NCBI RefSeq assembly: GCF_057098645.1
Contig: NZ_CM169472.1
Strand: one strand, 5' to 3'
Length of the DNA stretch: 64,000 bases
In this document: piece after piece, positions 4,252 to 52,267 of the stretch
Layout of the letters: every line of letters begins with the position of its first letter
Position numbering within the stretch: the stretch's first letter is position 1
Made by a program: the position numbers and the translations under genes
Notes under the pieces: generated by a model
Database searches by the model: none
What the model was told of the DNA's origin: nothing
Seen by the model: the letters and a program-made list of their open reading frames with translations, nothing else

Positions 4252-5209
4252 AGCACTACTGAACGCGGGACGTCAGACGTTAATGCTGGAATTGCAGGAA
4301 GCAAGCCGTTTACCGGAACGTCTGGGCGATGATTTTGTTCGCGCCGCCAATATCATCCTGCACTGCGAAGGCAAAGTGGTGGTTTCGGGAATTGGCAAAT
4401 CGGGCCACATTGGTAAGAAAATCGCCGCAACGCTTGCCAGTACCGGCACACCGGCTTTTTTTGTCCATCCGGCAGAAGCGCTGCACGGCGATCTGGGGAT
4501 GATCGAAAGCCGCGATGTGATGCTGTTTATCTCTTACTCCGGTGGCGCGAAGGAACTGGATCTGATTATTCCGCGTCTGGAAGATAAATCTATCGCGCTG
4601 CTGGCGATGACCGGCAAACCGACGTCACCGCTGGGCCTGGCGGCGAAAGCGGTGCTGGATATCTCCGTAGAACGCGAAGCCTGCCCGATGCACCTTGCGC
4701 CGACCTCCAGCACCGTCAATACCCTGATGATGGGCGACGCACTAGCGATGGCAGTCATGCAGGCGCGCGGTTTTAATGAAGAAGATTTTGCCCGCTCCCA
4801 CCCAGCTGGGGCACTGGGCGCTCGCTTGCTGAATAAAGTGCATCATCTGATGCGTCGTGATGACGCTATCCCACAGGTAGCGTTAACCGCCAGCGTGATG
4901 GATGCGATGCTGGAACTCAGCCGCACCGGTCTGGGGCTGGTGGCGGTATGTGACGCTCAACAACAGGTACAAGGCGTCTTTACCGACGGCGATTTACGTC
5001 GCTGGCTGGTTGGCGGCGGCGCACTCACCACGCCAGTTAATGAAGCGATGACGACAGGCGGTACCACATTACAGGCACAAAGCCGCGCCATCGACGCCAA
5101 AGAGATCCTGATGAAGCGCAAAATCACTGCCGCACCGGTGGTAGATGAAAACGGCAAACTCGTCGGCGCAATTAACCTGCAGGATTTCTATCAGGCCGGG
5201 ATTATTTAA
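4244..5209 (+). CDS. gutQ: D-arabinose 5-phosphate isomerase (SIS + tandem CBS domains)
   Basis: 321-aa ORF; SIS motif [29 protein letters not shown]; overlaps srlR end by 8 nt. Confidence 0.9.
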
Positions 5210-6720
5210 TCCTTCAATCCCAGACGTTTCGCCAGCCGATGCAGGTTGGCGACGTCGGTTTCCAGCATCCGCGCGCAGGCAGCCCAGTTGTGATGATTTT
5301 GTGCCAGTGCCTGACGAATAGTTTCACGCTGGAACGCTTCTGTCGCTTCACGCAGGTTTTGCTTAACAACGGGCACCGCCGCCGCTTCTGGCGGCGGTAA
5401 CGTCACCTCAGGAAAAGCAAAATGTTGCGCCTCAAGAATCACTTCATCGCCGTTGCGGGTGGCTCTCGCCAGCACTACCGCCCGATGAATAGCATGTTCC
5501 AGTTCGCGCACGTTCCCCGGAAAACGATAGTGTTGCAGTAAATTTCGCGCTCCGGCACTTAATACCACGCGGGAGAGCCCCAGCCGCAAACGACACTGCT
5601 CGCAGAAATACCCCGCCAGCAGAATGACATCATCGCCCCGCTCACGCAGCGGCGGCACCGAAAGTGGAAACACGCTCAGGCGGTGGAACAAGTCAGCGCG
5701 AAATCGCCCTGCCAGCACCTCTTCGCGTAAATCGCGGTTAGTCGCCGCCAGCACGCGCACATCGACCCGCAAACTACGGTCATCGCCAACGCGCTGAATA
5801 TCGCCATACTGCAACACCCTCAGCAGCTTGGCCTGCAATGCCAACGACAACTCGCCGATCTCATCGAGAAACAGCGTGCCGTTATCCGCCATTTCAAACT
5901 TCCCACTGCGGTTACTGATAGCGCCAGTAAACGCTCCTTTCACATGCCCGAACAACTCACTTTCCGCCACACTTTCCGGCAGTGCGGCACAGTTGAGATA
6001 GACCAGCGGATTCACCGCCCGTGGCGAGGCCTCATGAATCGCTTTCGCCACCAGCTCCTTACCGGTTCCCGTCTCACCGCTGATCAGGACGTTGAGATCG
6101 GACGCCGCCACAATCTCAATCTCTTTTTTCAGTTGCGTCATGCCTGGCGACAGACCGATCATCTGCGTCTGTTTCACCGCTTCAAACGGCGTGGCATCGC
6201 CTGGCAACATATTCTGGCTTTCCAGTTGCTCAATCAGCAACGCATTGCTTAACGCTCCCGCCGCCAGCGCGGCAATCAGGCGTAACTCTTCGTCACTGAA
6301 AACATCGAACTGATCGGGCTGCATCCCGTCGAGCGTCAATGCGCCGATCAGGTTTTGCCCGGCAAACAATGGCAGACCAACGCAGGCGTGGACCTTCAGA
6401 CTCTCCTGTCCGGGAATCAAACCATCATAGGGATCGGGCAATTCGCTGTCTGCGGGAAAGCGCACCACATCACCCGCGCGGGCAATCGCTTCCAGCCGTG
6501 GATGACCTTCCAGCGCAAAGCGTCTACCGAGTACATCCTTCGCCAGCCCGTCGATGGCAAGCGGAATAAACTGCCGCGAGTCGTAACGTAGCAACGCAGA
6601 CGCATCGCACTCCAGCACCTGACGCAGCGTGGTGATCAGGCGCTGAAAACGATCCTGATGACCAATCCCACGCTGCAATTCGATGGCGATATTCGCCAGC
6701 ACATCAACGGAAAAACTCAT
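5206..6720 (-). CDS. norR: sigma54-dependent nitric-oxide-responsive transcriptional activator NorR
   Basis: ORF track gives 529 aa from 6795; start placed at internal Met (MSFSVDV...) giving 504 aa. GAF domain, AAA+ Walker [15 protein letters not shown] sigma54-contact motif, C-terminal HTH. Confidence 0.92.
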
Positions 6721-6732
6721 CTTTGCCTCACT

Positions 6733-6788
6733 GTCAATTTGACTATAGATATTGTCATATCGACCATTTGATTGATAGTCATTTTGAC
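6733..6788. promoter_or_regulatory. three GT-N7-AC inverted-repeat sites (NorR enhancer-like) in the norR-norV divergent region
   Basis: GTCAATTTGAC 6733-6743, GTCATATCGAC 6754-6764, GTCATTTTGAC 6778-6788, read directly from sequence; matches the known NorR binding-site architecture. Confidence 0.6.
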
Positions 6789-6843
6789 TACTCATTAATG
6801 AGCATAATTTTATTTATAGAGTAAAAACAATCAGATAAAAAAC

Positions 6844-6859
6844 TGGCATGCAATCTGCT
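6844..6859 (+). promoter_or_regulatory. candidate sigma54 (-24/-12) promoter for norVW
   Basis: TGGCATGcaatcTGCT with GG and GC at the canonical spacing, ~50 nt upstream of norV ATG. Confidence 0.55.
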
Positions 6860-6906
6860 ATTAGCAAGACATCTTTTTAGAACACGCTGAATAAATTGAG
6901 GTTGCT

Positions 6907-8346
6907 ATGTCTATTGTGGTGAAAAATAACATTCATTGGGTGGGTCAACGTGACTGGGAAGTGCGTGATTTTCACGGCACGGAATATAAAACGCTGCGCG
7001 GCAGCAGCTACAACAGCTACCTCATCCGCGAAGAAAAAAACGTGCTGATCGACACCGTCGACCATAAATTCAGCCGCGAATTTGTGCAGAACCTGCGTAA
7101 TGAAATCGATCTGGCGGATATCGATTACATCGTGATTAACCATGCAGAAGAGGACCACGCCGGGGCGCTGACCGAACTGATGGCACAAATTCCCGATACG
7201 CCGATCTACTGTACAGCCAACGCTATCGACTCGATAAATGGTCATCACCATCATCCGGAGTGGAATTTTAATGTGGTGAAAACTGGCGACACGCTGGATA
7301 TCGGCAACGGCAAACAGCTCATTTTTGTCGAAACACCAATGCTGCACTGGCCGGACAGCATGATGACTTACCTGACAGGCGACGCGGTGCTGTTCAGTAA
7401 CGATGCTTTCGGTCAGCACTACTGCGACGAGCATCTGTTCAACGATGAAGTGGATCAGACGGAGCTTTTCGAGCAGTGCCAGCGTTACTACGCCAATATC
7501 CTGACGCCGTTCAGCCGCCTGGTAACGCCGAAAATTACCGAGATCCTGGGCTTTAACTTACCAGTCGATATGATAGCGACCTCCCACGGCGTGGTCTGGC
7601 GCGATAACCCGACGCAAATTGTCGAGCTGTACCTGAAGTGGGCCGCTGATTATCAGGAAGACAGAATCACCATTTTCTACGACACCATGTCGAATAACAC
7701 CCGCATGATGGCTGACGCTATCGCCCAGGGGATTGCGGAAACCGACCCACGCGTGGCGGTGAAAATTTTCAACGTCGCCCGAAGCGATAAAAACGAAATC
7801 CTGACCAATGTCTTCCGCTCAAAAGGCGTGCTGGTCGGCACTTCGACGATGAATAACGTGATGATGCCGAAAATCGCCGGGCTGGTGGAGGAGATGACCG
7901 GATTACGCTTCCGTAACAAACGCGCCAGTGCTTTCGGCTCTCACGGCTGGAGCGGCGGTGCGGTGGATCGTCTTTCCACGCGCCTGCAGGATGCGGGTTT
8001 CGAAATGTCGCTTAGCCTGAAAGCGAAATGGCGACCAGACCAGGACGCTCTGGAGTTATGCCGTGAACACGGTCGCGAAATCGCCCGTCAGTGGGCGCTC
8101 GCGCCGCTGCCGCAGAGCACGGTGAATACGGTAGTTAAAGAAGAAACCTCTGCCACCACGACGGCTGACCTCGGCCCACGGATGCAGTGCAGCGTCTGCC
8201 AGTGGATTTACGATCCGGCAAAAGGCGAGCCAATGCAGGACGTTGCGCCAGGAACGCCGTGGAGTGAAGTCCCGGATAACTTCCTCTGCCCGGAATGCTC
8301 CCTCGGCAAAGACGTCTTTGAAGAACTGGCATCGGAGGCAAAATGA
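6907..8346 (+). CDS. norV: anaerobic nitric oxide reductase flavorubredoxin
   Basis: 479-aa ORF; metallo-beta-lactamase-like diiron region (HAEEDHAG), flavodoxin domain, C-terminal rubredoxin [10 protein letters not shown]...CPEC. Confidence 0.93.
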
Positions 8347-9476
8347 GTAACGGCATTGTGATCATTGGTTCGGGCTTCGCCGCCCGCCAACTGGTGAAAA
8401 ATATTCGCAAACAGGACGCCACTATTCCATTAACCCTGATTGCCGCCGACAGCATAGATGAGTACAACAAACCTGACCTCAGCCATGTTATCAGTCAGGG
8501 GCAACGTGCCGACGACCTTACCCGCCAGACGGCGGGTGAATTTGCCGAGCAGTTTAATCTGCACCTGTTTCCGCACACCTGGGTGACGGATATCGATGCC
8601 GAAGCCCGTGTGGTGAAAAGCCAGAATAATCAGTGGCAATACGACAAGCTAGTACTGGCAACCGGTGCCAGTGCCTTTGTCCCGCCTGTGCCTGGGCGTG
8701 AGTTAATGCTGACGTTAAATAGTCAGCAAGAGTATCGCGCCTGTGAAACGCAACTGCGGGATGCCCGACGCGTGTTGATTGTTGGCGGTGGTTTGATTGG
8801 TAGCGAACTGGCGATGGATTTTTGTCGTGCAGGCAAAATGGTTACGCTAATCGACAACGCTGCCAGTATTCTGGCGTCGTTAATGCCACCGGAAGTAAGC
8901 AGTCGCTTGCAGCATCGGTTGACGGAGATGGGCGTTCATCTGCTGTTGAAATCTCAGTTGCAGGGGCTGGAAAAAACGGATTCTGGCATTCTGGCAACGC
9001 TGGACCACCAGCGCAGCATCGAAGTGGATGCGGTAATTGCCGCCACCGGACTGCGCCCGGAAACAGCCCTGGCACGACGCGCCGGGCTGACGATTAATCG
9101 CGGCGTTTGCGTCGATAGTTATCTGCAAACCAGTAATGCCGATATTTACGCGCTGGGCGATTGCGCGGAAATTAACGGTCAGGTATTGCCGTTCCTCCAG
9201 CCGATTCAACTTAGCGGGATGGTGCTGGCAAAAAATCTTCTCGGCAATAACACGCCGCTGAAACTACCGGCGATGCTGGTGAAAATCAAAACGCCGGAAT
9301 TACCGCTGCATCTGGCAGGCGAAACCCAGCGTCAGGATTTACGCTGGCAGATTAATACCGAACGCCAGGGAATGGTGGCGCGCGGCGTTGACGATGCTGA
9401 CCAGCTTCGCGCCTTTGTGGTAAGTGAGGATCGGATGAAAGAGGCATTTGGATTGTTGAAAACATTGCCGATGTAG
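8343..9476 (+). CDS. norW: NADH:flavorubredoxin oxidoreductase
   Basis: 377-aa ORF; N-terminal FAD-binding GxGxxA ([12 protein letters not shown]) and second dinucleotide fold ([14 protein letters not shown]); overlaps norV by 4 nt. Confidence 0.9.
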
Positions 9477-16959: not shown

Positions 16960-17379
16960 TCAAAGAAACCATTCCGGCTTAACGCCAAATCGGGCTGAAA
17001 GTGCCTTAATGTGGGATATTGTCAGGGATCGTTGTCCAGACAAAATCTGACTGACCAGGGATTTAGAGCCGATTTCGTTCTTCAAATCCGCATAGGTCAG
17101 ATTATGTTGATCAATCAACGTGCGAAGTAACGCCACGCCAACCGGCATTGCCGCAACGGCTTTGTCGAACTCTGCAAACTTTTCGTTGTTGTTTTCATAC
17201 TCTGCAATGCGGCTCGCCAGAAAGTCGATAAGTGGATTGGTGTCATCTTCTTCAATCAAATATTCGACCAGTTCCAGTGCTTCACGATAATCATCTTCTG
17301 AGTCACTGCCTCCCAGAAAGGGGACTGCATTGACCAGTTCTCTTGTTGCTTTAACAGCGCGTGCAGCATTAGCAGTCAT
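16960..17379 (-). CDS. HigA-like antitoxin (HTH, XRE family)
   Basis: 139-aa ORF; C-terminal HTH (SKSLVSQILSGQRSLTISHIKALSARFGV); 4-nt overlap with upstream toxin ORF; toxin-first order typical of higBA. Confidence 0.75.
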   Translation of the reverse strand: MTANAARAVKATRELVNAVPFLGGSDSEDDYREALELVEYLIEEDDTNPLIDFLASRIAEYENNNEKFAEFDKAVAAMPVGVALLRTLIDQHNLTYADLKNEIGSKSLVSQILSGQRSLTISHIKALSARFGVKPEWFL

Positions 17380-17687
17380 TCTTTGTTCTCTCTGTAGTAA
17401 CGTGTCAGTTTGTCATACTCTGCGTGATTCGTTATGTGCTTCACAAAGAACCGCTTATTAACAAAGTTTATGTAGGCAATAACCCTAAGATTGTTCCCGC
17501 CGACATCCAGAACGTACCATTTGTTGCGATATTTAAAATTGTCGAGGTTGGGAAACGCCGTTCGCATTTCTTCTGGCGTAGAAAAATCCGTTTCCTTAAT
17601 AACCCGATACAATGCCTGAAGAGCCAGAGCGTCGTTAGGATATTTACGCGCAGACTCTTCAAATGGCGCTTTAGAAATGATGTGCAT
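17376..17687 (-). CDS. HigB-like toxin (RelE/ParE superfamily mRNA interferase)
   Basis: 103-aa basic ORF with DNFKY and VGGNNLRV motifs shared with HigB-type toxins; coupled to antitoxin. Confidence 0.75.
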   Translation of the reverse strand: MHIISKAPFEESARKYPNDALALQALYRVIKETDFSTPEEMRTAFPNLDNFKYRNKWYVLDVGGNNLRVIAYINFVNKRFFVKHITNHAEYDKLTRYYRENKE

Positions 17688-17848
17688 TTTTAAGTTTTAA
17701 CTTCCTTATAGTAAGTAAACAGCCACATCTGCGAGTTCTATCCTCATGTGTTCGGAAACTATAGCTCATCAAATCCAGGTTCACAATATGTAAACACTTG
17801 CGCGTGATATAATTACCCCCAAAATCCTCATAACCACTCTGCAAAAAG

Positions 17849-18622
17849 TCAGTTCTGATTCACCCCATCAAGCACATCCCCCTTTATCAAGCAACGTTGC
17901 GTCAGCGACAGATCTTCCGTTTGTGTGTCGCGCCCGGCGATGGGTTTGAGGACGAGTTTACGGTTGGGGGTATAAGTAAAACGCGTGAGCGCGGGATAGC
18001 TTAACTTGCCAAACCAGCCGTGAACACGCTGCCATTTGGCGTCTTTTACCTGATACAGACTGGTTATCCAGTAACCAGAATTAAACTGCATATCCAGCAA
18101 TTGCGTGTGACCATTGCCTTGTAAATCCAGCAAATCATCTACGCCAGTTTTGCTTGCAGTGTAGAATCCCCAGGGTTCAAAGACACAGGGACGGCCTTCG
18201 TGCGTGAACGTCATGAGGATTAAATGTGCATAGGGCGCCAGACCATTACCGGCACTTGGCAACCAGATAACCAGATCCTGAATGCCGTTACGATCCAGAT
18301 CGGCGCGATAGAGCTGCCCTTTGCCCGCCATATTTGCCAGCAACCCCACTGGCACCGTCCAGGATTTACCCGCGAGGTCTTTAGCGGTTAATTGCCAGTA
18401 ATCCTCTTCATTTGGCATCTTCTCAAGCGTCACGCCAGCAACGCCGATTTTTCTAAAATGCCAAGTTTGCTCGGTATAATAAGGCATGGTCAGGAGAGGT
18501 TTCAGCGCCCGCTTTTGCGCATATTCGCTGCCACTCATTGGCAGATATTCGGTAAAGCTGGTGGCCAGTGCAGACTGCACTAAGCTCAATAAAAAAGCGC
18601 ACATCCCTGTTCTGATGTTCAA
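17849..18622 (-). CDS. exported protein of unknown function, possible FG-GAP/VCBS-like calcium-binding loops
   Basis: 257-aa ORF with N-terminal signal peptide (MNIRTGMCAFLLSLVQSALA); motifs ADLDRNGIQDLV and LDLQGNGHTQLLD; starts 24 nt downstream of hycI stop on the same strand. Confidence 0.7.
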   Translation of the reverse strand: MNIRTGMCAFLLSLVQSALATSFTEYLPMSGSEYAQKRALKPLLTMPYYTEQTWHFRKIGVAGVTLEKMPNEEDYWQLTAKDLAGKSWTVPVGLLANMAGKGQLYRADLDRNGIQDLVIWLPSAGNGLAPYAHLILMTFTHEGRPCVFEPWGFYTASKTGVDDLLDLQGNGHTQLLDMQFNSGYWITSLYQVKDAKWQRVHGWFGKLSYPALTRFTYTPNRKLVLKPIAGRDTQTEDLSLTQRCLIKGDVLDGVNQN

Positions 18623-23485: not shown

Positions 23486-25312
23486 TCAGGCTCCTCGTGA
23501 AACAATAATCACCACCAGTACCGCCAGTTCAACCAGCGCCATCCGGCGGAACAGCAACGCACTCCCCTCGCACTGCCAGCCCGGCACCAGCGACACCGGA
23601 TTCAGCCATTTGCGCAGTTTCAGCACCGGCGCAAACGCCTGTTTCACCGGCATGGCAAAACCGTGAGCGGTAATCACCATTGATTTTTCGTGGTCGTAAC
23701 CGCACACCCAGGCCGCACCGCGGGAACGCGATGGCAAACGATCGCCTTTGCAAATCGCCATAATGATGAATGGCAGCAGCGGGCAGGCAATCAGCAGCAA
23801 CGTGATCATCGGTTGAGAAACGGTGGTGTTAGCAGGCTCCAGCGGCAGAGGTACAGCAGCAGAGAGCATCGGCAGTAGCCACGGCGCAGCAACACCGCCA
23901 ATTACGCAGCAAATCGCCAGTGCCACTACGCTTACGCTCATCAGGAGCGGTGCACAGGTGGCGTTTTCGGCTTCTTTGGTACGCGGCGCGCCGAGGAACG
24001 TGACGCCATAGACTTTCGCCATACACATCACCGCCAGCGCACCGGTAATTGCCAGACCCACAGCGAGCAGCGGCCCCAGCAGACGGGCAACAAACGCGCC
24101 ACTATTGCTCAGTTTGAAAAAGGATTGATAGATAACCCATTCCCCGGCAAACCCGTTCAGCGGCGGCAGTGCAGCCATTGCCATCAGCCCGACTAACATA
24201 GCGATGGAGATAACCGGCATTTTCTTGCCAATACCACCGAGTTTTTCGATATCGCGATGACCGGTACGGAACCAGACGCTCCCCGCCCCGAGGAACAGTA
24301 CACTTTTGAACAGGCTATGGTTAAGCAGATGGTACAGACCACCGACCAGGCCAAGAGCAATCAGCGCCGGTTGTTCGAGCGCGATACCCGTTACGCCAGC
24401 GCCCAGCCCCAGCAGGATAATGCCGATATTTTCCAGGGTGTGGTAAGCCAGTAGACGCTGGATGTTATGCTCCATCAGCGCATACAGACCACCGACGAAC
24501 GCGGTGATCATACCGAGCACCAGCAGCGCGATCCCCCACCACAGCGGTGCATTACCGCCCAGCAGTGACAGGGTTAAAATGCCCAGCAGGCCAATTTTCA
24601 TGACTACCGTAGAAAACAACACGGCAGCTGGCGCAGAGGCGTTCGCATGTGCCTGCGGCACCCAGCCGTGCAGCGGAATAATCCCGGCCAGCAGGCCAAA
24701 GCCAATCACACCGAGCAGCCAGATATCGGAACCGAGCGGCAGCTGTTGCATACGCATATCCAGCAGGCGCAGATCCAGCGTGCCGTAACGCTGCCACAGC
24801 AGCCAGCAAGCAATCGCCAGCAGCAGAGTGCCAAGACGCCCCAGCGCAAACCACAGTTTGCCCTCTTTGCTGTTGCTGGTGAGGAACACCGCACACAAGG
24901 CCATGACTTCGGCCATTACCACGAACATGCCGAGGTTGCTGGCAATGACGGCGCAGACGGCGGCAGCCATCAACATATTGATCTGCAAGCCGTTGCACTT
25001 CACCTGCGCGTGGCGATGCCAGTCAATGTTGTAGAGGCTGACAAACAGACCGCACAGACCGAGCGTAATCAGCCAAATCGCGTTAAGCGGAGAGATTTGC
25101 ACATCGTAGCTTACCAGCGACAGCGCACCGCTCACGCCAACCGCGCCAGTCAGTACTGTGAAGCCCGCTGCTGCCGTATACAGACTACCAACCGCGCCGC
25201 CAATTCCGGCTATCCAGCCGCTTAGCGCCTTTTGAAAAGAAAAGAGAAATGCCAGAACAGCGGCGGCGACAAACCACGCCACGCCGCTATTGATCAGGGA
25301 AATTGCGCTCAT
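23486..25312 (-). CDS. hycC: formate hydrogenlyase membrane subunit 3 (NuoL/MrpA-like antiporter module)
   Basis: 608-aa polytopic membrane ORF. Confidence 0.9.
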   Translation of the reverse strand: MSAISLINSGVAWFVAAAVLAFLFSFQKALSGWIAGIGGAVGSLYTAAAGFTVLTGAVGVSGALSLVSYDVQISPLNAIWLITLGLCGLFVSLYNIDWHRHAQVKCNGLQINMLMAAAVCAVIASNLGMFVVMAEVMALCAVFLTSNSKEGKLWFALGRLGTLLLAIACWLLWQRYGTLDLRLLDMRMQQLPLGSDIWLLGVIGFGLLAGIIPLHGWVPQAHANASAPAAVLFSTVVMKIGLLGILTLSLLGGNAPLWWGIALLVLGMITAFVGGLYALMEHNIQRLLAYHTLENIGIILLGLGAGVTGIALEQPALIALGLVGGLYHLLNHSLFKSVLFLGAGSVWFRTGHRDIEKLGGIGKKMPVISIAMLVGLMAMAALPPLNGFAGEWVIYQSFFKLSNSGAFVARLLGPLLAVGLAITGALAVMCMAKVYGVTFLGAPRTKEAENATCAPLLMSVSVVALAICCVIGGVAAPWLLPMLSAAVPLPLEPANTTVSQPMITLLLIACPLLPFIIMAICKGDRLPSRSRGAAWVCGYDHEKSMVITAHGFAMPVKQAFAPVLKLRKWLNPVSLVPGWQCEGSALLFRRMALVELAVLVVIIVSRGA

Positions 25313-26541: not shown

Positions 26542-26558
26542 AAGCATTTTTTGTGCCA
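26542..26558 (-). promoter_or_regulatory. candidate sigma54 promoter for hyc operon
   Basis: Minus strand reads TGGCACaaaaaaTGCTT with canonical GG/GC spacing, ~35 nt upstream of hycA start. Confidence 0.5.
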
Positions 26559-26614
26559 ACTTTTAATTCATTGTTATTAAAGCGATTTTTAAGATTTTGG
26601 TGAATTTCGTCGCC

Positions 26615-26644: not shown

Positions 26645-26671
26645 ATTATTCACTGCAGGGATAATCAACAC

Positions 26672-26687
26672 TGGCACAATTATTGCT
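26672..26687 (+). promoter_or_regulatory. candidate sigma54 promoter for hyp operon
   Basis: TGGCACaattaTTGCT, near-consensus -24/-12 element ~30 nt upstream of hypA ATG. Confidence 0.6.
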
Positions 26688-32523: not shown

Positions 32524-32877
32524 CTATTCACGAGGTTTTTTCGGACGATATTTTTCCGGCAGTTCTGGCACCGGACGCTTGTCATCGATGAGATGACGCA
32601 CGGTTAAGATCGGATGACGCCACAGCATTCTCGGCCCGGCCCAACGCATAATCTGTTTCATCTCTTCACGTTTTGCAGGCTGGTAACAGTGCACCGGACA
32701 CTGCTTACAGGCTGGTTTCTGTTCGCCGAACACACATTTATCCAGCCGCTTTTGCGCGTAAGCAAACAACGCCTCGTAATGCTCCGGCTCCGCTGACGCT
32801 TGCGGGCATTTCGCTTGATAAAGATCGATCATTTTTTTAATCGTCAGTTTTTCACGAGAGATACGCTTGCCGGACAT
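32524..32877 (-). CDS. ygbA: small cysteine-containing protein YgbA
   Basis: 117-aa ORF at the conserved position between fhlA and mutS. Confidence 0.8.
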   Translation of the reverse strand: MSGKRISREKLTIKKMIDLYQAKCPQASAEPEHYEALFAYAQKRLDKCVFGEQKPACKQCPVHCYQPAKREEMKQIMRWAGPRMLWRHPILTVRHLIDDKRPVPELPEKYRPKKPRE

Positions 32878-36774: not shown

Positions 36775-38202
36775 TTATTTACGTACGGCCAGCATAGCGG
36801 TCAGTTTTTCAGCCCAGGCTTTGGTTTCCGGCAAATCCACCACCGGCTGGCTGTAGTGACCACGGTTGTCCGGGGCGACAGGCGTGGTGGCGTCGATAAT
36901 CAGCTTGTCGGTGATCCCCGCCGGGCTTGAGCCAGGGTCGAGTTCCAGCACGGACATATTCGGCAACTGCACCAAATCCCCTGCCGGATTTACTTTCGAG
37001 GAGAGCGCCCACATCACCTGCGGCAGGTTGAACGGGTCAACGTCTTCATCGACCATAATCACCATCTTTACGTAGCCCAGACCGTGCGGCGTGGTCATCG
37101 CACGCAGGCCCACCGCGCGGGCAAAGCCGCCGTAGCGTTTTTTGGTGGAGATAATCGCCAGCAGGCCGTGGGTGTACATGGCGTTTACCGCCTGCACTTC
37201 CGGGAACTCGGCTTTCAGTTGTTGATACAGCGGTACGCAGGTGGCTGGCCCCATCAGGTAGTCGATTTCGGTCCACGGCATGCCGAGGTACAGCGATTCG
37301 AAAATCGGCCTGGTGCGGTAAGAGACTTTATCGATGCGCACCACGGTCATGTTACGCCCGCCGGAGTAGTGTCCGGTAAACTCACCGAACGGCCCTTCGA
37401 TTTCGCGTTTACGGCTTTCGATGACCCCTTCGAGGATCACTTCTGAACCCCACGGCACATCAAAACCGGTCAGCGGGGCGGTGGCGATCGGGTACGGGCT
37501 TTCACGCAGCGCGCCTGCCATTTCATACTCAGACTGATCGTATTTCAGCGGCGTGGCCCCCATCAGCGTGATGATCGGATCGTTACCGAGCGTGATCGCA
37601 ATCGGCAGATCTTCACCGCGCTCTTCTGCTTTATGCAGATGCAGGGCGATATCGTGCATCGGTACCGGTTGCAGGCCAAGCTTACGCTTGCCCTTCACTT
37701 CCATGCGGTAGATGCCGACGTTCTGCTTGCCGAAGTTATCTGGGTCGAGCGGATCGCGGGAAACCACGCAGGCTTTGTCGAGATAGAAACCGCCATCGCC
37801 ATCATTTAAACGAAACAGCGGCAGGATATCGAACAGATTAATCTCGTCACCATCGACGGTGTTCTGCGCCCAGGCAGGATTGGCGCGGCGCTCCGGGACA
37901 ATCGGGAAGTTATCCCAGCGGCGGATAAACTCATCAATCTGTTTTTTAACCGGCGTGTTTGGCGGCAGGCCGAGGGAAATCGCGTGGTTCTGCCAGGAAC
38001 CGATGGTATTCATCGCCACGCGGGCATCGGTAAAGCCGCGAATATTATCAAACCACAGCGCGGGCGCGCCGTCGCCGATACGCCCGGTGGCGTTAGCTGC
38101 TGCTGCCAGATCCGGCTCAGCGTTCATTTCTTCGCTGATTTTCAGTAACTGGCCGTGGTCATCAAGCGCCTGTAAAAAGCTGCGTAAATCATCAAATGCC
38201 AT
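36775..38202 (-). CDS. UbiD-family (prFMN-dependent) decarboxylase, EcdC/BsdC-like
   Basis: 475-aa ORF with UbiD-family architecture; 1-nt overlap with the upstream UbiX-like gene. Confidence 0.88.
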   Translation of the reverse strand: MAFDDLRSFLQALDDHGQLLKISEEMNAEPDLAAAANATGRIGDGAPALWFDNIRGFTDARVAMNTIGSWQNHAISLGLPPNTPVKKQIDEFIRRWDNFPIVPERRANPAWAQNTVDGDEINLFDILPLFRLNDGDGGFYLDKACVVSRDPLDPDNFGKQNVGIYRMEVKGKRKLGLQPVPMHDIALHLHKAEERGEDLPIAITLGNDPIITLMGATPLKYDQSEYEMAGALRESPYPIATAPLTGFDVPWGSEVILEGVIESRKREIEGPFGEFTGHYSGGRNMTVVRIDKVSYRTRPIFESLYLGMPWTEIDYLMGPATCVPLYQQLKAEFPEVQAVNAMYTHGLLAIISTKKRYGGFARAVGLRAMTTPHGLGYVKMVIMVDEDVDPFNLPQVMWALSSKVNPAGDLVQLPNMSVLELDPGSSPAGITDKLIIDATTPVAPDNRGHYSQPVVDLPETKAWAEKLTAMLAVRK

Positions 38203-49490: not shown

Positions 49491-50528
49491 ATGTTTTCCG
49501 CATTGCGCCACCGTACCGCTGCCCTGGCGCTCGGCGTATGCTTTATTCTCCCCGTACACGCCTCATCACCTAAACCTGGCGATTTTGCTAATACCCAGGC
49601 ACGACATATTGCTACTTTCTTTCCGGGACGCATGACCGGAACTCCTGCAGAAATGTTATCTGCCGATTATATTCGCCAACAGTTTCAGCAAATGGGTTAT
49701 CGCAGTGATATTCGGACATTTAATAGTCGGTATATTTATACCGCCCGCGATAATCGCAAGAGCTGGCATAACGTGACGGGAAGTACGGTGATTGCCGCTC
49801 ATGAAGGCAAAGCGCCGCAGCAGATCATCATTATGGCGCATCTGGATACTTACGCCCCGCTGAGCGATGCTGACGCCGATGCCAATCTCGGCGGGCTGAC
49901 GTTACAAGGAATGGATGATAACGCCGCAGGTTTAGGTGTCATGCTGGAATTGGCAGAACGCCTGAAAAATACGCCTACCGAGTATGGTATTCGATTTGTG
50001 GCGACCAGCGGCGAAGAGGAAGGGAAATTAGGCGCTGAGAATTTACTCAAGCGGATGAGTGACACCGAAAAGAAAAATACGCTGCTGGTGATTAATCTCG
50101 ATAACTTAATTGTTGGCGATAAATTGTATTTCAACAGCGGTGTAAAAACCCCTGAAGCAGTAAGGAAATTAACGCGCGACAGGGCGCTGGCAATTGCGCG
50201 TAGTCATGGAATTGCCGCAACGACCAATCCGGGTTTGAATAAAAATTATCCGAAAGGCACTGGGTGTTGTAATGACGCAGAAATATTCGACAAAGCGGGC
50301 ATTGCTGTACTTTCGGTGGAAGCGACTAACTGGAATCTTGGGAATAAGGATGGTTATCAGCAACGCGCAAAAACAGCCGCATTCCCTGCGGGAAATAGCT
50401 GGCATGACGTAAGACTGGATAATCAACAGCATATTGATAAGGCACTTCCTGGAAGAATAGAACGTCGCTGCCGTGACGTTATGCGGATAATGCTACCACT
50501 GGTGAAGGAGCTGGCGAAGGCGTCTTGA
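49491..50528 (+). CDS. iap: alkaline phosphatase isozyme conversion aminopeptidase (M28 family)
   Basis: 345-aa ORF with signal peptide and M28 motifs (HLDT, SGEEEG); classic neighbour of the E. coli CRISPR array. Confidence 0.9.
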   Translation: MFSALRHRTAALALGVCFILPVHASSPKPGDFANTQARHIATFFPGRMTGTPAEMLSADYIRQQFQQMGYRSDIRTFNSRYIYTARDNRKSWHNVTGSTVIAAHEGKAPQQIIIMAHLDTYAPLSDADADANLGGLTLQGMDDNAAGLGVMLELAERLKNTPTEYGIRFVATSGEEEGKLGAENLLKRMSDTEKKNTLLVINLDNLIVGDKLYFNSGVKTPEAVRKLTRDRALAIARSHGIAATTNPGLNKNYPKGTGCCNDAEIFDKAGIAVLSVEATNWNLGNKDGYQQRAKTAAFPAGNSWHDVRLDNQQHIDKALPGRIERRCRDVMRIMLPLVKELAKAS

Positions 50529-50548
50529 TGGGTTTGAAAATGGGAGCT

Positions 50549-50943
50549 GGGTGTTCTACCGCAGGGGCGGGGAATTCTAAGTGATATCCATCATCGCATC
50601 CAGTGCGCCCGGTTTATCCCCGCTGGCGCGGGGAACACTACCCAAAGCCATACGTTTTTGAGGGTTAAAACGGTTTATCCCCGCTGGCGCGGGGAACTCG
50701 AGACCTGCCATGAGGTGGATTTATCAGTCGGCGGTTTATCCCCGCTGACGCGGGGAACTCGATTTTTTCCGCTTCTGACAAATGGTTTTTATCGGTTTAT
50801 CCCCGCTGGCGCGGGGAACTCCCCGAACCCGGCAACATGCTCGCCGACCTGCGCGGTTTATCCCCGCTGGCGCGGGGAACTCTTGATGAAGCGGCGCGTG
50901 TTATAGCTGATGGCCGGTTTATCCCCGCTGGCGCGGGGAACTC
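50549..50943 (-). CRISPR. type I-E CRISPR array: 6 full 29-bp repeats, 6 x 32-bp spacers, plus a degenerate leader-distal repeat
   Basis: Plus-strand repeat CGGTTTATCCCCGCTGGCGCGGGGAACTC at 50610, 50671, 50732, 50793, 50854, 50915 (61-bp period); minus strand reads GAGTTCCCCGCGCCAGCGGGGATAAACCG. Spacers 50578-50609, 50639-50670, 50700-50731, 50761-50792, 50822-50853, 50883-50914. Degenerate repeat 50549-50577 (19/29). The + ORF 50658-50906 is a repeat artefact. Confidence 0.95.
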
Positions 50944-51048
50944 TCTAAAAGTATACATTTGTTCTTAAAGCATTTTTTCCCATAAAAACAACCCACCAAC
51001 CTTGATGTAACATTTCCTTATTATTAAAGATCAGCTAATTCTTTGTTT
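50944..51048 (-). promoter_or_regulatory. CRISPR leader (AT-rich, array promoter)
   Basis: ~105-bp AT-rich segment between cas2 stop and the first repeat; array transcribed on the minus strand away from cas2. Confidence 0.7.
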
Positions 51049-52252
<1,204 letters not shown>

Positions 52253-52267
52253 TTTATTACACCTCAA

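Follow-up and report, generated by a model that had tools for sequence, protein, structure and literature searches.

The closest described system is the norR-norVW region of Escherichia coli K-12, whose NorR sites 1 to 3, IHF region, and sigma-54 promoter (norVp) are reportedly also treated in Tucker et al. 2004, Gardner et al. 2003, and Justino et al. 2005. In K-12, NorR protects the DNA from −137 to −84, and IHF binds between the enhancer and the start site (PMC2831303). Changing GT..AC to GG..CC at any single site abolished norV-lacZ induction (Tucker et al. 2010, PMC2831303). Each of these mutations removed NorR protection at that site only, and all three sites were required for full ATPase activity and open-complex formation (PMC2831303). 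The K-12 promoter coincides with the sigma-54 ChIP-seq site OS25, CTGGCACGCAATCTGCA, an EcoCyc-confirmed promoter whose start is predicted 19 nt past the motif center, leaving 37 nt to norV (Bonocora et al. 2015, PMC4591121).

The NorR (FhpR)-dependent hmp/fhp promoters of Pseudomonas and the Burkholderiales are also similar. They likewise have a divergent norR homolog (44% to 54% identity), three GTC-N5-GAC-type repeats adjoining the norR start, and a sigma-54 box at a fixed offset, but their target is an NO dioxygenase instead of a flavorubredoxin. Their repeats are separated by gaps of 8 to 10 and 14 to 15 nt, as opposed to 10 and 13 nt in the locus described here, their box usually lies at 41 to 42 nt instead of 55 nt, and their −12 element is often TGA or TGT, not TGC.

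We analyzed a window of 64,000 nt (the whole stretch of DNA under study) for the elements of such a system. With a probability of roughly 0.96, to judge from its sequence and from comparison with K-12, the norR-norV intergenic region of this window is the NorR-dependent enhancer and sigma-54 promoter of norVW on an E. coli O145:H28-type chromosome. Nothing among the evidence gathered contradicts this assignment. The features of the region, by window coordinates and strand, are as follows.

5206-6720, minus strand: norR, encoding the NO-sensing sigma-54 enhancer-binding protein (504 aa; GAF, AAA+, and C-terminal DNA-binding domains; NCBIfam NF003451, Pfam)
6733-6743, no strand assigned: NorR site 3 (promoter-distal), GTCAATTTGAC, GT-N7-AC, the wild-type form of the Site3 primer (PMC2831303)
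6754-6764, no strand assigned: NorR site 2, GTCATATCGAC, GT-N7-AC, the wild-type form of the Site2 primer (PMC2831303)
6778-6788, no strand assigned: NorR site 1 (promoter-proximal), GTCATTTTGAC, GT-N7-AC, the wild-type form of the Site1 primer (PMC2831303)
6789-6842, no strand assigned: A/T-rich spacer from enhancer to promoter (~80% A+T, by composition)
6843-6859, plus strand: sigma-54 promoter of norVW, CTGGCATGCAATCTGCT, GG-N10-GC with GG at 6845-6846 (−25/−24) and GC at 6857-6858 (−13/−12)
6870, plus strand: putative norV transcription start (+1), from two published numberings for K-12
6898-6901, plus strand: Shine-Dalgarno sequence GAGG, 5 nt before the norV ATG, read from the sequence
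6907-8346, plus strand: norV, encoding the flavorubredoxin NO reductase (479 aa, intact; NCBIfam NF003954)
8343-9476, plus strand: norW, encoding the NADH:flavorubredoxin reductase (377 aa; NCBIfam NF003437)

The gene content is that of the K-12 system, with norR divergent and norV-norW downstream. All three products exceed the cutoffs of their NCBIfam equivalogs, with 826 bits for NorR against NF003451 (cutoff 476), 1047 bits for NorV against NF003954 (cutoff 711), and 681 bits for NorW against NF003437 (cutoff 392); the RefSeq annotation of identical DNA also names norR and norV. NorR contains the Pfam domains GAF, Sigma54_activat, and AAA_lid_14, with no HTH_8 match listed at E ≤ 0.001. Its iron ligands R75, D96, D99, C113, and D131 are all present, and its GAFTGA loop occupies residues 262 to 267. 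Six residues of NorR differ from K-12, none of them among the iron ligands, in the GAFTGA loop, or within the last 58 residues (the C-terminal DNA-binding region), and NorV differs from K-12 by a single residue. An upstream norR start at 6795, suggested by the program-made list of open reading frames, was rejected in favor of 6720 on the basis of RefSeq and the K-12 length.

The agreement with K-12 extends to the regulatory DNA. The intergenic region is 186 bp long in both strains, there is no difference in the three NorR sites or their flanks, and the GG-N10-GC geometry, the putative start, and the 37-nt leader are the same. The two regions differ by three substitutions in 186 bp, at 6801, 6849, and 6859, and two of these fall in the promoter core. 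Over the species as a whole, a 401-nt probe around the region has a counterpart with at least 97% identity in 5,425 of 5,426 complete E. coli genomes. The probe is 100% identical to O145 strain RM9872, from which positions 1-38000 of the window differ at just 17 positions.

Several features lie elsewhere in the window. A type I-E CRISPR array at 50601-50943 has at least six repeats of CGGTTTATCCCCGCTGGCGCGGGGAACTC with a 61-nt period. The cas6e-cas5e-cas7e-cse2-cse1 reading frames beside it look full length and are followed by a long, cas3-sized one (51049-59698), whereas RM9872, the closest complete genome, carries an IS3 insertion and truncated cas5e and casA genes at this locus. RM9872 is also 183 nt shorter (three repeat-spacer units) somewhere within window positions 50000-52000. 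Because of these CRISPR-cas differences, the window comes from an O145:H28 strain other than RM9872. Between cas3 and cysH, we found a match to the sok antitoxin RNA (Rfam RF01794) at 59778-59934 on the minus strand (98 bits against a gathering score of 59), which is a chromosomal hok/sok-type locus. In the RM9872 annotation, ~36775-38202 corresponds to I3Y_RS17800, the gene for hydroxyarylic acid decarboxylase subunit C, listed there as a pseudogene that an internal stop interrupts. The window and RM9872 also differ by a 1-nt indel at ~38928, between the subunit B gene and a gene for a MarR-family regulator. The window also contains a second NO-related gene, ygbA, at 32524-32877 on the minus strand next to mutS, which is annotated in RM9872 as a "nitrous oxide-stimulated promoter family protein."

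The first-pass annotation had described three evenly spaced GT-N7-AC inverted repeats in this region. All three are present at the positions given above, and each also fits the longer pattern GTCA-N4-GAC. Their spacing is even only approximately, with start-to-start distances of 21 and 24 bp and gaps of 10 and 13 nt. Of the coordinates it had given for the whole element, 6733-6859, the first is precisely the initial G of the distal NorR site and the last is promoter position −11. It had proposed comparison with the footprinted K-12 sites, and the three repeats turn out to be base-for-base identical to K-12 sites 3, 2, and 1 (Tucker et al. 2010, PMC2831303). Positions 6700-6800, which begin within norR and take in all three sites, align with K-12 without a single difference. 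An 80-nt enhancer segment containing the three repeats is not only identical to K-12 but recurs unchanged in 3,478 complete E. coli genomes. The sites are invariant in 11 sampled E. coli alleles, among which the adjacent spacer is the most variable part of the intergenic region.

Motifs of this kind might be chance matches in A/T-rich intergenic DNA, with norV transcribed instead from a sigma-70 promoter, for example TTGTCA-16-GATAGT at 6752-6779. Taken alone, GT-N7-AC is low in information, and TGGCA-N7-TGC was encountered 9 times in the window where 4.6 matches were expected, so the motif alone is not rare; the significance of the sigma-54 element lies in its position. The sigma-70 candidate is the one such match on the plus strand, but 1.0 is expected in shuffles. 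The enhancer cluster behaves very differently. GTCA-N4-GAC occurs at 13 distinct positions on either strand of the window, compared with ~6 in shuffles, and its 17 strand matches (6.2 expected) were reached in no shuffle. A cluster of three within 60 bp was found in 0 of 400 shuffles, and a Poisson estimate puts such a cluster at ~1e-4 per 64 kb. This nonrandom clustering is set beside the invariance of the sites next to a variable spacer, and beside the conservation across genera that follows.

A scan of a single genome from each species for triples of GTCA-N4-GAC with gaps of 8 to 15 nt gave at least 120 loci, in at least 37 of which the triple adjoins the N-terminus of a NorR homolog. Among the matches listed, a TGGCA(C/T) box stands at a fixed offset in 34 of 37 NorR-adjacent loci, as TGGCAC in 24 and TGGCAT in 10. 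In at least 10 enterobacterial norR-norV loci (from E. albertii, Citrobacter, Kluyvera, Enterobacter, and Moellerella), the box follows site 1 at a distance of 55 nt. Gaps of 10 and 13 nt are kept in E. albertii, Citrobacter, Kluyvera, and Enterobacter, while Moellerella has 9 and 13 nt with the same 55-nt offset; the position of site 2 is kept in nine other enterobacterial sequences. Shewanella has the same gaps as the Enterobacteriaceae, with its box following site 1 at 64 nt. For the Pseudomonas and Burkholderiales loci among the matches listed, this distance is 41 to 42 nt in most cases (75 nt in Mitsuaria). The divergent gene in these loci has an Hmp-like start, and two such genes, one in a Pseudomonas and one in a Diaphorobacter, proved to encode the NO-inducible flavohemoprotein. 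Gaps are 8 and 15 or 9 and 14 nt in Pseudomonas, and 9 to 10 and 14 nt in the Burkholderiales. Based on these gap patterns, the outer sites stay ~45 bp apart throughout while the middle site shifts between them.

The same scan returned triple GTCA-N4-GAC matches from many Bacteroides, Parabacteroides, and Prevotellaceae MAG contigs, several with overlapping matches on both strands in 21- to 26-nt steps. No NorR homolog was found beside the Bacteroidales matches (one weak NorR match lies more than 2 kb away), and what they resemble is a family of palindromic repeats, dispersed or in tandem, without a connection to NorR.

A candidate fourth NorR site was considered within norV. The perfect palindrome GTCAACGTGAC at 6944-6954 (norV codons 13 to 16, approximately +75 to +85) fits the GT-N7-AC core. 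Its "GT" comes from a glycine codon for which Citrobacter, Kluyvera, several Enterobacter, and Shewanella use GGC, GGA, or GGG; the encoded peptide, GQRDW, is invariant. Because the codon varies while the peptide is fixed, we rejected the palindrome as a coding coincidence and not a conserved site. Published protection on a fragment that contains it was confined to −137 to −84 (PMC2831303).

The three repeats also lie close to norR, with site 3 ending 12 nt from the norR start codon. They could therefore double as operators at which NorR represses its own divergent gene, a dual role that would accompany enhancer function and not replace it. Negative autoregulation of norR was reportedly described by Hutchings et al. 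2002. On the minus strand, a single sigma-70-like candidate was seen, CTGATT-16-TAAAAT from 6834 to 6807 (8 of 12 matches); it is upstream of all three sites relative to norR, and bound NorR would then sit on the norR leader. This candidate promoter is weak, however, and at chance level, and we consider the odds for such a second role to be about even.

Between the enhancer and the promoter, the A/T-rich spacer differs from K-12 at one base (6801). A conserved ATCA(A/G) block occupies 6830-6834 in the enterobacterial alignment. Within 6789-6842, no match to the IHF consensus WATCAR-N4-TTR was found with up to one mismatch; the only such matches in the intergenic region fall between NorR sites 2 and 1 (6758-6777). 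In Citrobacter, a perfect consensus match, AATCAAACAATTA, stands at the aligned place in the spacer. Closer to norV, the sequence TGAGGTTGCT at the Shine-Dalgarno position is kept in 8 of 10 aligned enterobacterial sequences, and an Rfam search of the norR-norV region gave no match.

The −24/−12 element read by the first-pass annotation, TGGCATG-N4-CTGCT, is present at 6844-6859 as TGGCATGCAATCTGCT (TGGCATG-caat-CTGCT), with the GG-N10-GC arrangement. Two published K-12 numberings can be projected onto the window to place the transcription start. The footprint from −137 to −84 fits G6733 to G6786 exactly (53 nt apart), and therefore +1 would be 6870. Independently, the motif center is at 6851, and the 19 nt of the ChIP-seq prediction lead to 6870, which leaves 37 nt to the ATG at 6907. 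That annotation had named a norV start mapped elsewhere as the result that would speak against it; the footprint and ChIP-seq numberings both give 6870, so the published K-12 data show no such displacement, and norV transcription in this strain probably begins there as well. With published mutagenesis and ChIP-seq on identical or orthologous DNA (PMC2831303, PMC4591121), and with the spacing and the offset to the sigma-54 box kept across genera, the notion of chance motifs and a sigma-70 promoter is refuted by shuffles, conservation, and K-12 genetics taken together, and we regard it as extremely improbable. The NorR-dependent, sigma-54 assignment is the one that we retain.

Sigma-54 promoters occur elsewhere in the window as well. 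The hycA site TTGGCACAAAAAATGCT (26543-26559, minus strand) and the hypA site CTGGCACAATTATTGCT (26671-26687, plus strand) match K-12 ChIP-seq sites OS27 and OS28 exactly (PMC4591121). They belong to the same class of enhancer-dependent promoter as norVp, but they differ in their activator (FhlA, responding to formate) and upstream sites, and three tandem sites are not required. An intragenic site in hycC (24086-24102, minus strand) is likewise an exact copy of a published K-12 ChIP-seq site, and the K-12 hydN 17-mer CTGGCATGATTTGTGAA has no exact match in the window. The distance from the norV sigma-54 site to that of hycA is 19.7 kb, compared with 18.1 kb in K-12. The extra ~1.6 kb coincides with a locus at ~16960-18604 (RM9872 annotation, RM9872 segment 10960-12604) that lies between ascB and hycI, has genes for a HigB-family toxin and an HTH antitoxin plus one hypothetical gene, and looks like an accessory toxin-antitoxin insertion.

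The presence, position, nonrandom arrangement, and conservation of the DNA elements, together with the identity of the flanking genes, are direct observations. From sequence identity with K-12, in which the mechanism is established, we infer that NorR binding, looping, and NO induction also operate in this strain. Three NorR dimers would occupy the three repeats (−137 to −84) with or without NO, and the enhancer DNA would serve as both scaffold and ligand for assembly of a NorR hexamer poised at the promoter. IHF would bend the A/T-rich spacer such that the hexamer contacts sigma-54 RNA polymerase, held in a closed complex on the −24/−12 element. When NO nitrosylates the nonheme iron of the GAF domain, repression of the AAA+ ATPase would be lifted, and ATP hydrolysis would remodel the closed complex and open the promoter, allowing norVW to be transcribed from around 6870.

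In one respect, the promoter departs from the established one. The first-pass annotation had taken it as matching the known NorR/sigma-54 control of norVW; that control stands, but the annotation overlooked that the hexamers differ from K-12 at two positions. The core is not identical to the canonical K-12 norVp core, TGGCACGCAATCTGCA, as position 6849 (−21) has changed from C to T (TGGCAC to TGGCAT) and position 6859 (−11) from A to T (CTGCA to CTGCT). The window promoter is nevertheless an allelic variant of the same promoter and not a different kind.

This allele is rare. The exact 81-nt promoter segment (6810-6890) occurs in 26 of 5,413 complete E. coli genomes, and all carriers with names are O145:H28, O145:NM, or O145. 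No one-step intermediates exist among the 5,413 genomes, the next-best matches being 2 nt away. A blastn search with a 36-nt core probe found 3,997 genomes to be K-12-like, 1,385 with one difference, and 44 with two or three. The sampled one-base core variants change position −8 (Nissle 1917) or −19, in the low-information spacer, and the −8 change is by inference also present in other B2 strains. At −21, C is found in the 10 other sampled E. coli alleles, leaving T to the window allele only, and in nine other aligned enterobacterial norV promoters. At −11, A is the base in Escherichia, Citrobacter, and Kluyvera of the ten-sequence alignment; Enterobacter has T there, and its −12 element is TTGAT. 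Separately, E. coli strain B2.3 has C changed to A at −12 (CTGCA to CTGAA; aligned to 6858), together with an A-to-C change just upstream of the −24 box. As the former affects a near-invariant sigma-54 position, it could be either a real promoter-down allele or an assembly error.

To gauge the effect of the two O145 changes, we used a position weight matrix built from the 135 in vivo sigma-54 sites in Bonocora et al. (PMC4591121). The window promoter scored 15.83 bits compared with 17.35 for K-12, a drop of 1.5 bits that takes it, among bound sites, from approximately the 92nd percentile to the 77th. Each substitution puts the next most frequent base in place of the most frequent one (at −21, C 74 and T 48; at −11, A 77 and T 39). 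Since the drop is small and both new bases are second commonest, the O145 promoter is predicted to be functional and at most mildly weakened. The −21 change may still carry some cost, because C is otherwise invariant at this position in the aligned enterobacterial and sampled E. coli promoters.

A stronger proposal is that the two changes measurably alter norVW output and thereby give the lineage its own NO-detoxification phenotype, which could come about through lower closed-complex occupancy or an altered −12/−11 fork junction. The lowered matrix score, the invariant C at −21, and the restriction of the allele to O145 among named carriers, with no intermediates, all point in this direction. 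So does the location of the only two O145-specific changes in 186 nt, both of which fall within the 16-nt core, with a post hoc chance of ~(16/186)^2 = 0.007. However, the new bases are each the second most frequent at bound sites (T in 48 of 135 at −21 and in 39 of 135 at −11), the score remains in the upper range, and GGCATG...CTGCT is also the arrangement in the zraS promoter of E. coli, ATGGCATGATTTCTGCT (PMC4591121 list). The TGGCAT form is also found in the 10 of 34 NorR-linked promoters of other species noted above (among the matches listed), and in a clonal lineage, drift can fix two SNPs. Altered output thus seems unlikely to us, though by no means far-fetched, and mild or absent weakening of a functional promoter is the prediction that we carry forward. 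A published study of EHEC norVW gives O145:H28 strains as norV-intact and leaves the promoter unmentioned, and a 2025 NAR paper on sigma-54 promoter engineering is without per-position mutational data.

The norR-norVW regulatory region of this strain is an already known system, ordinary apart from its rare, lineage-specific promoter allele. It exemplifies, in textbook form, sigma-54 transcription that depends on an enhancer and responds to NO, and finding it here does not extend what is known of it. The conserved but unequal spacing of the repeats (10 and 13 nt, with a constant outer distance) provides a small structural constraint for models of NorR hexamer assembly. The sole addition is a rare, naturally occurring double mutation in the promoter core, restricted to the clinically important STEC lineage O145:H28. 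In EHEC, norV status has been linked to macrophage survival and Stx2 expression, and the promoter variant may bear on the control of NO detoxification in O145:H28. It is a doubtful idea, slightly more so than altered output itself, that the paired −21 and −11 changes, private to O145:H28 STEC, retune norVW induction and thereby affect NO tolerance and NO-dependent Shiga-toxin expression. If this were true, the retuned promoter would be the regulatory counterpart of the norV deletion found in many O157:H7 strains.
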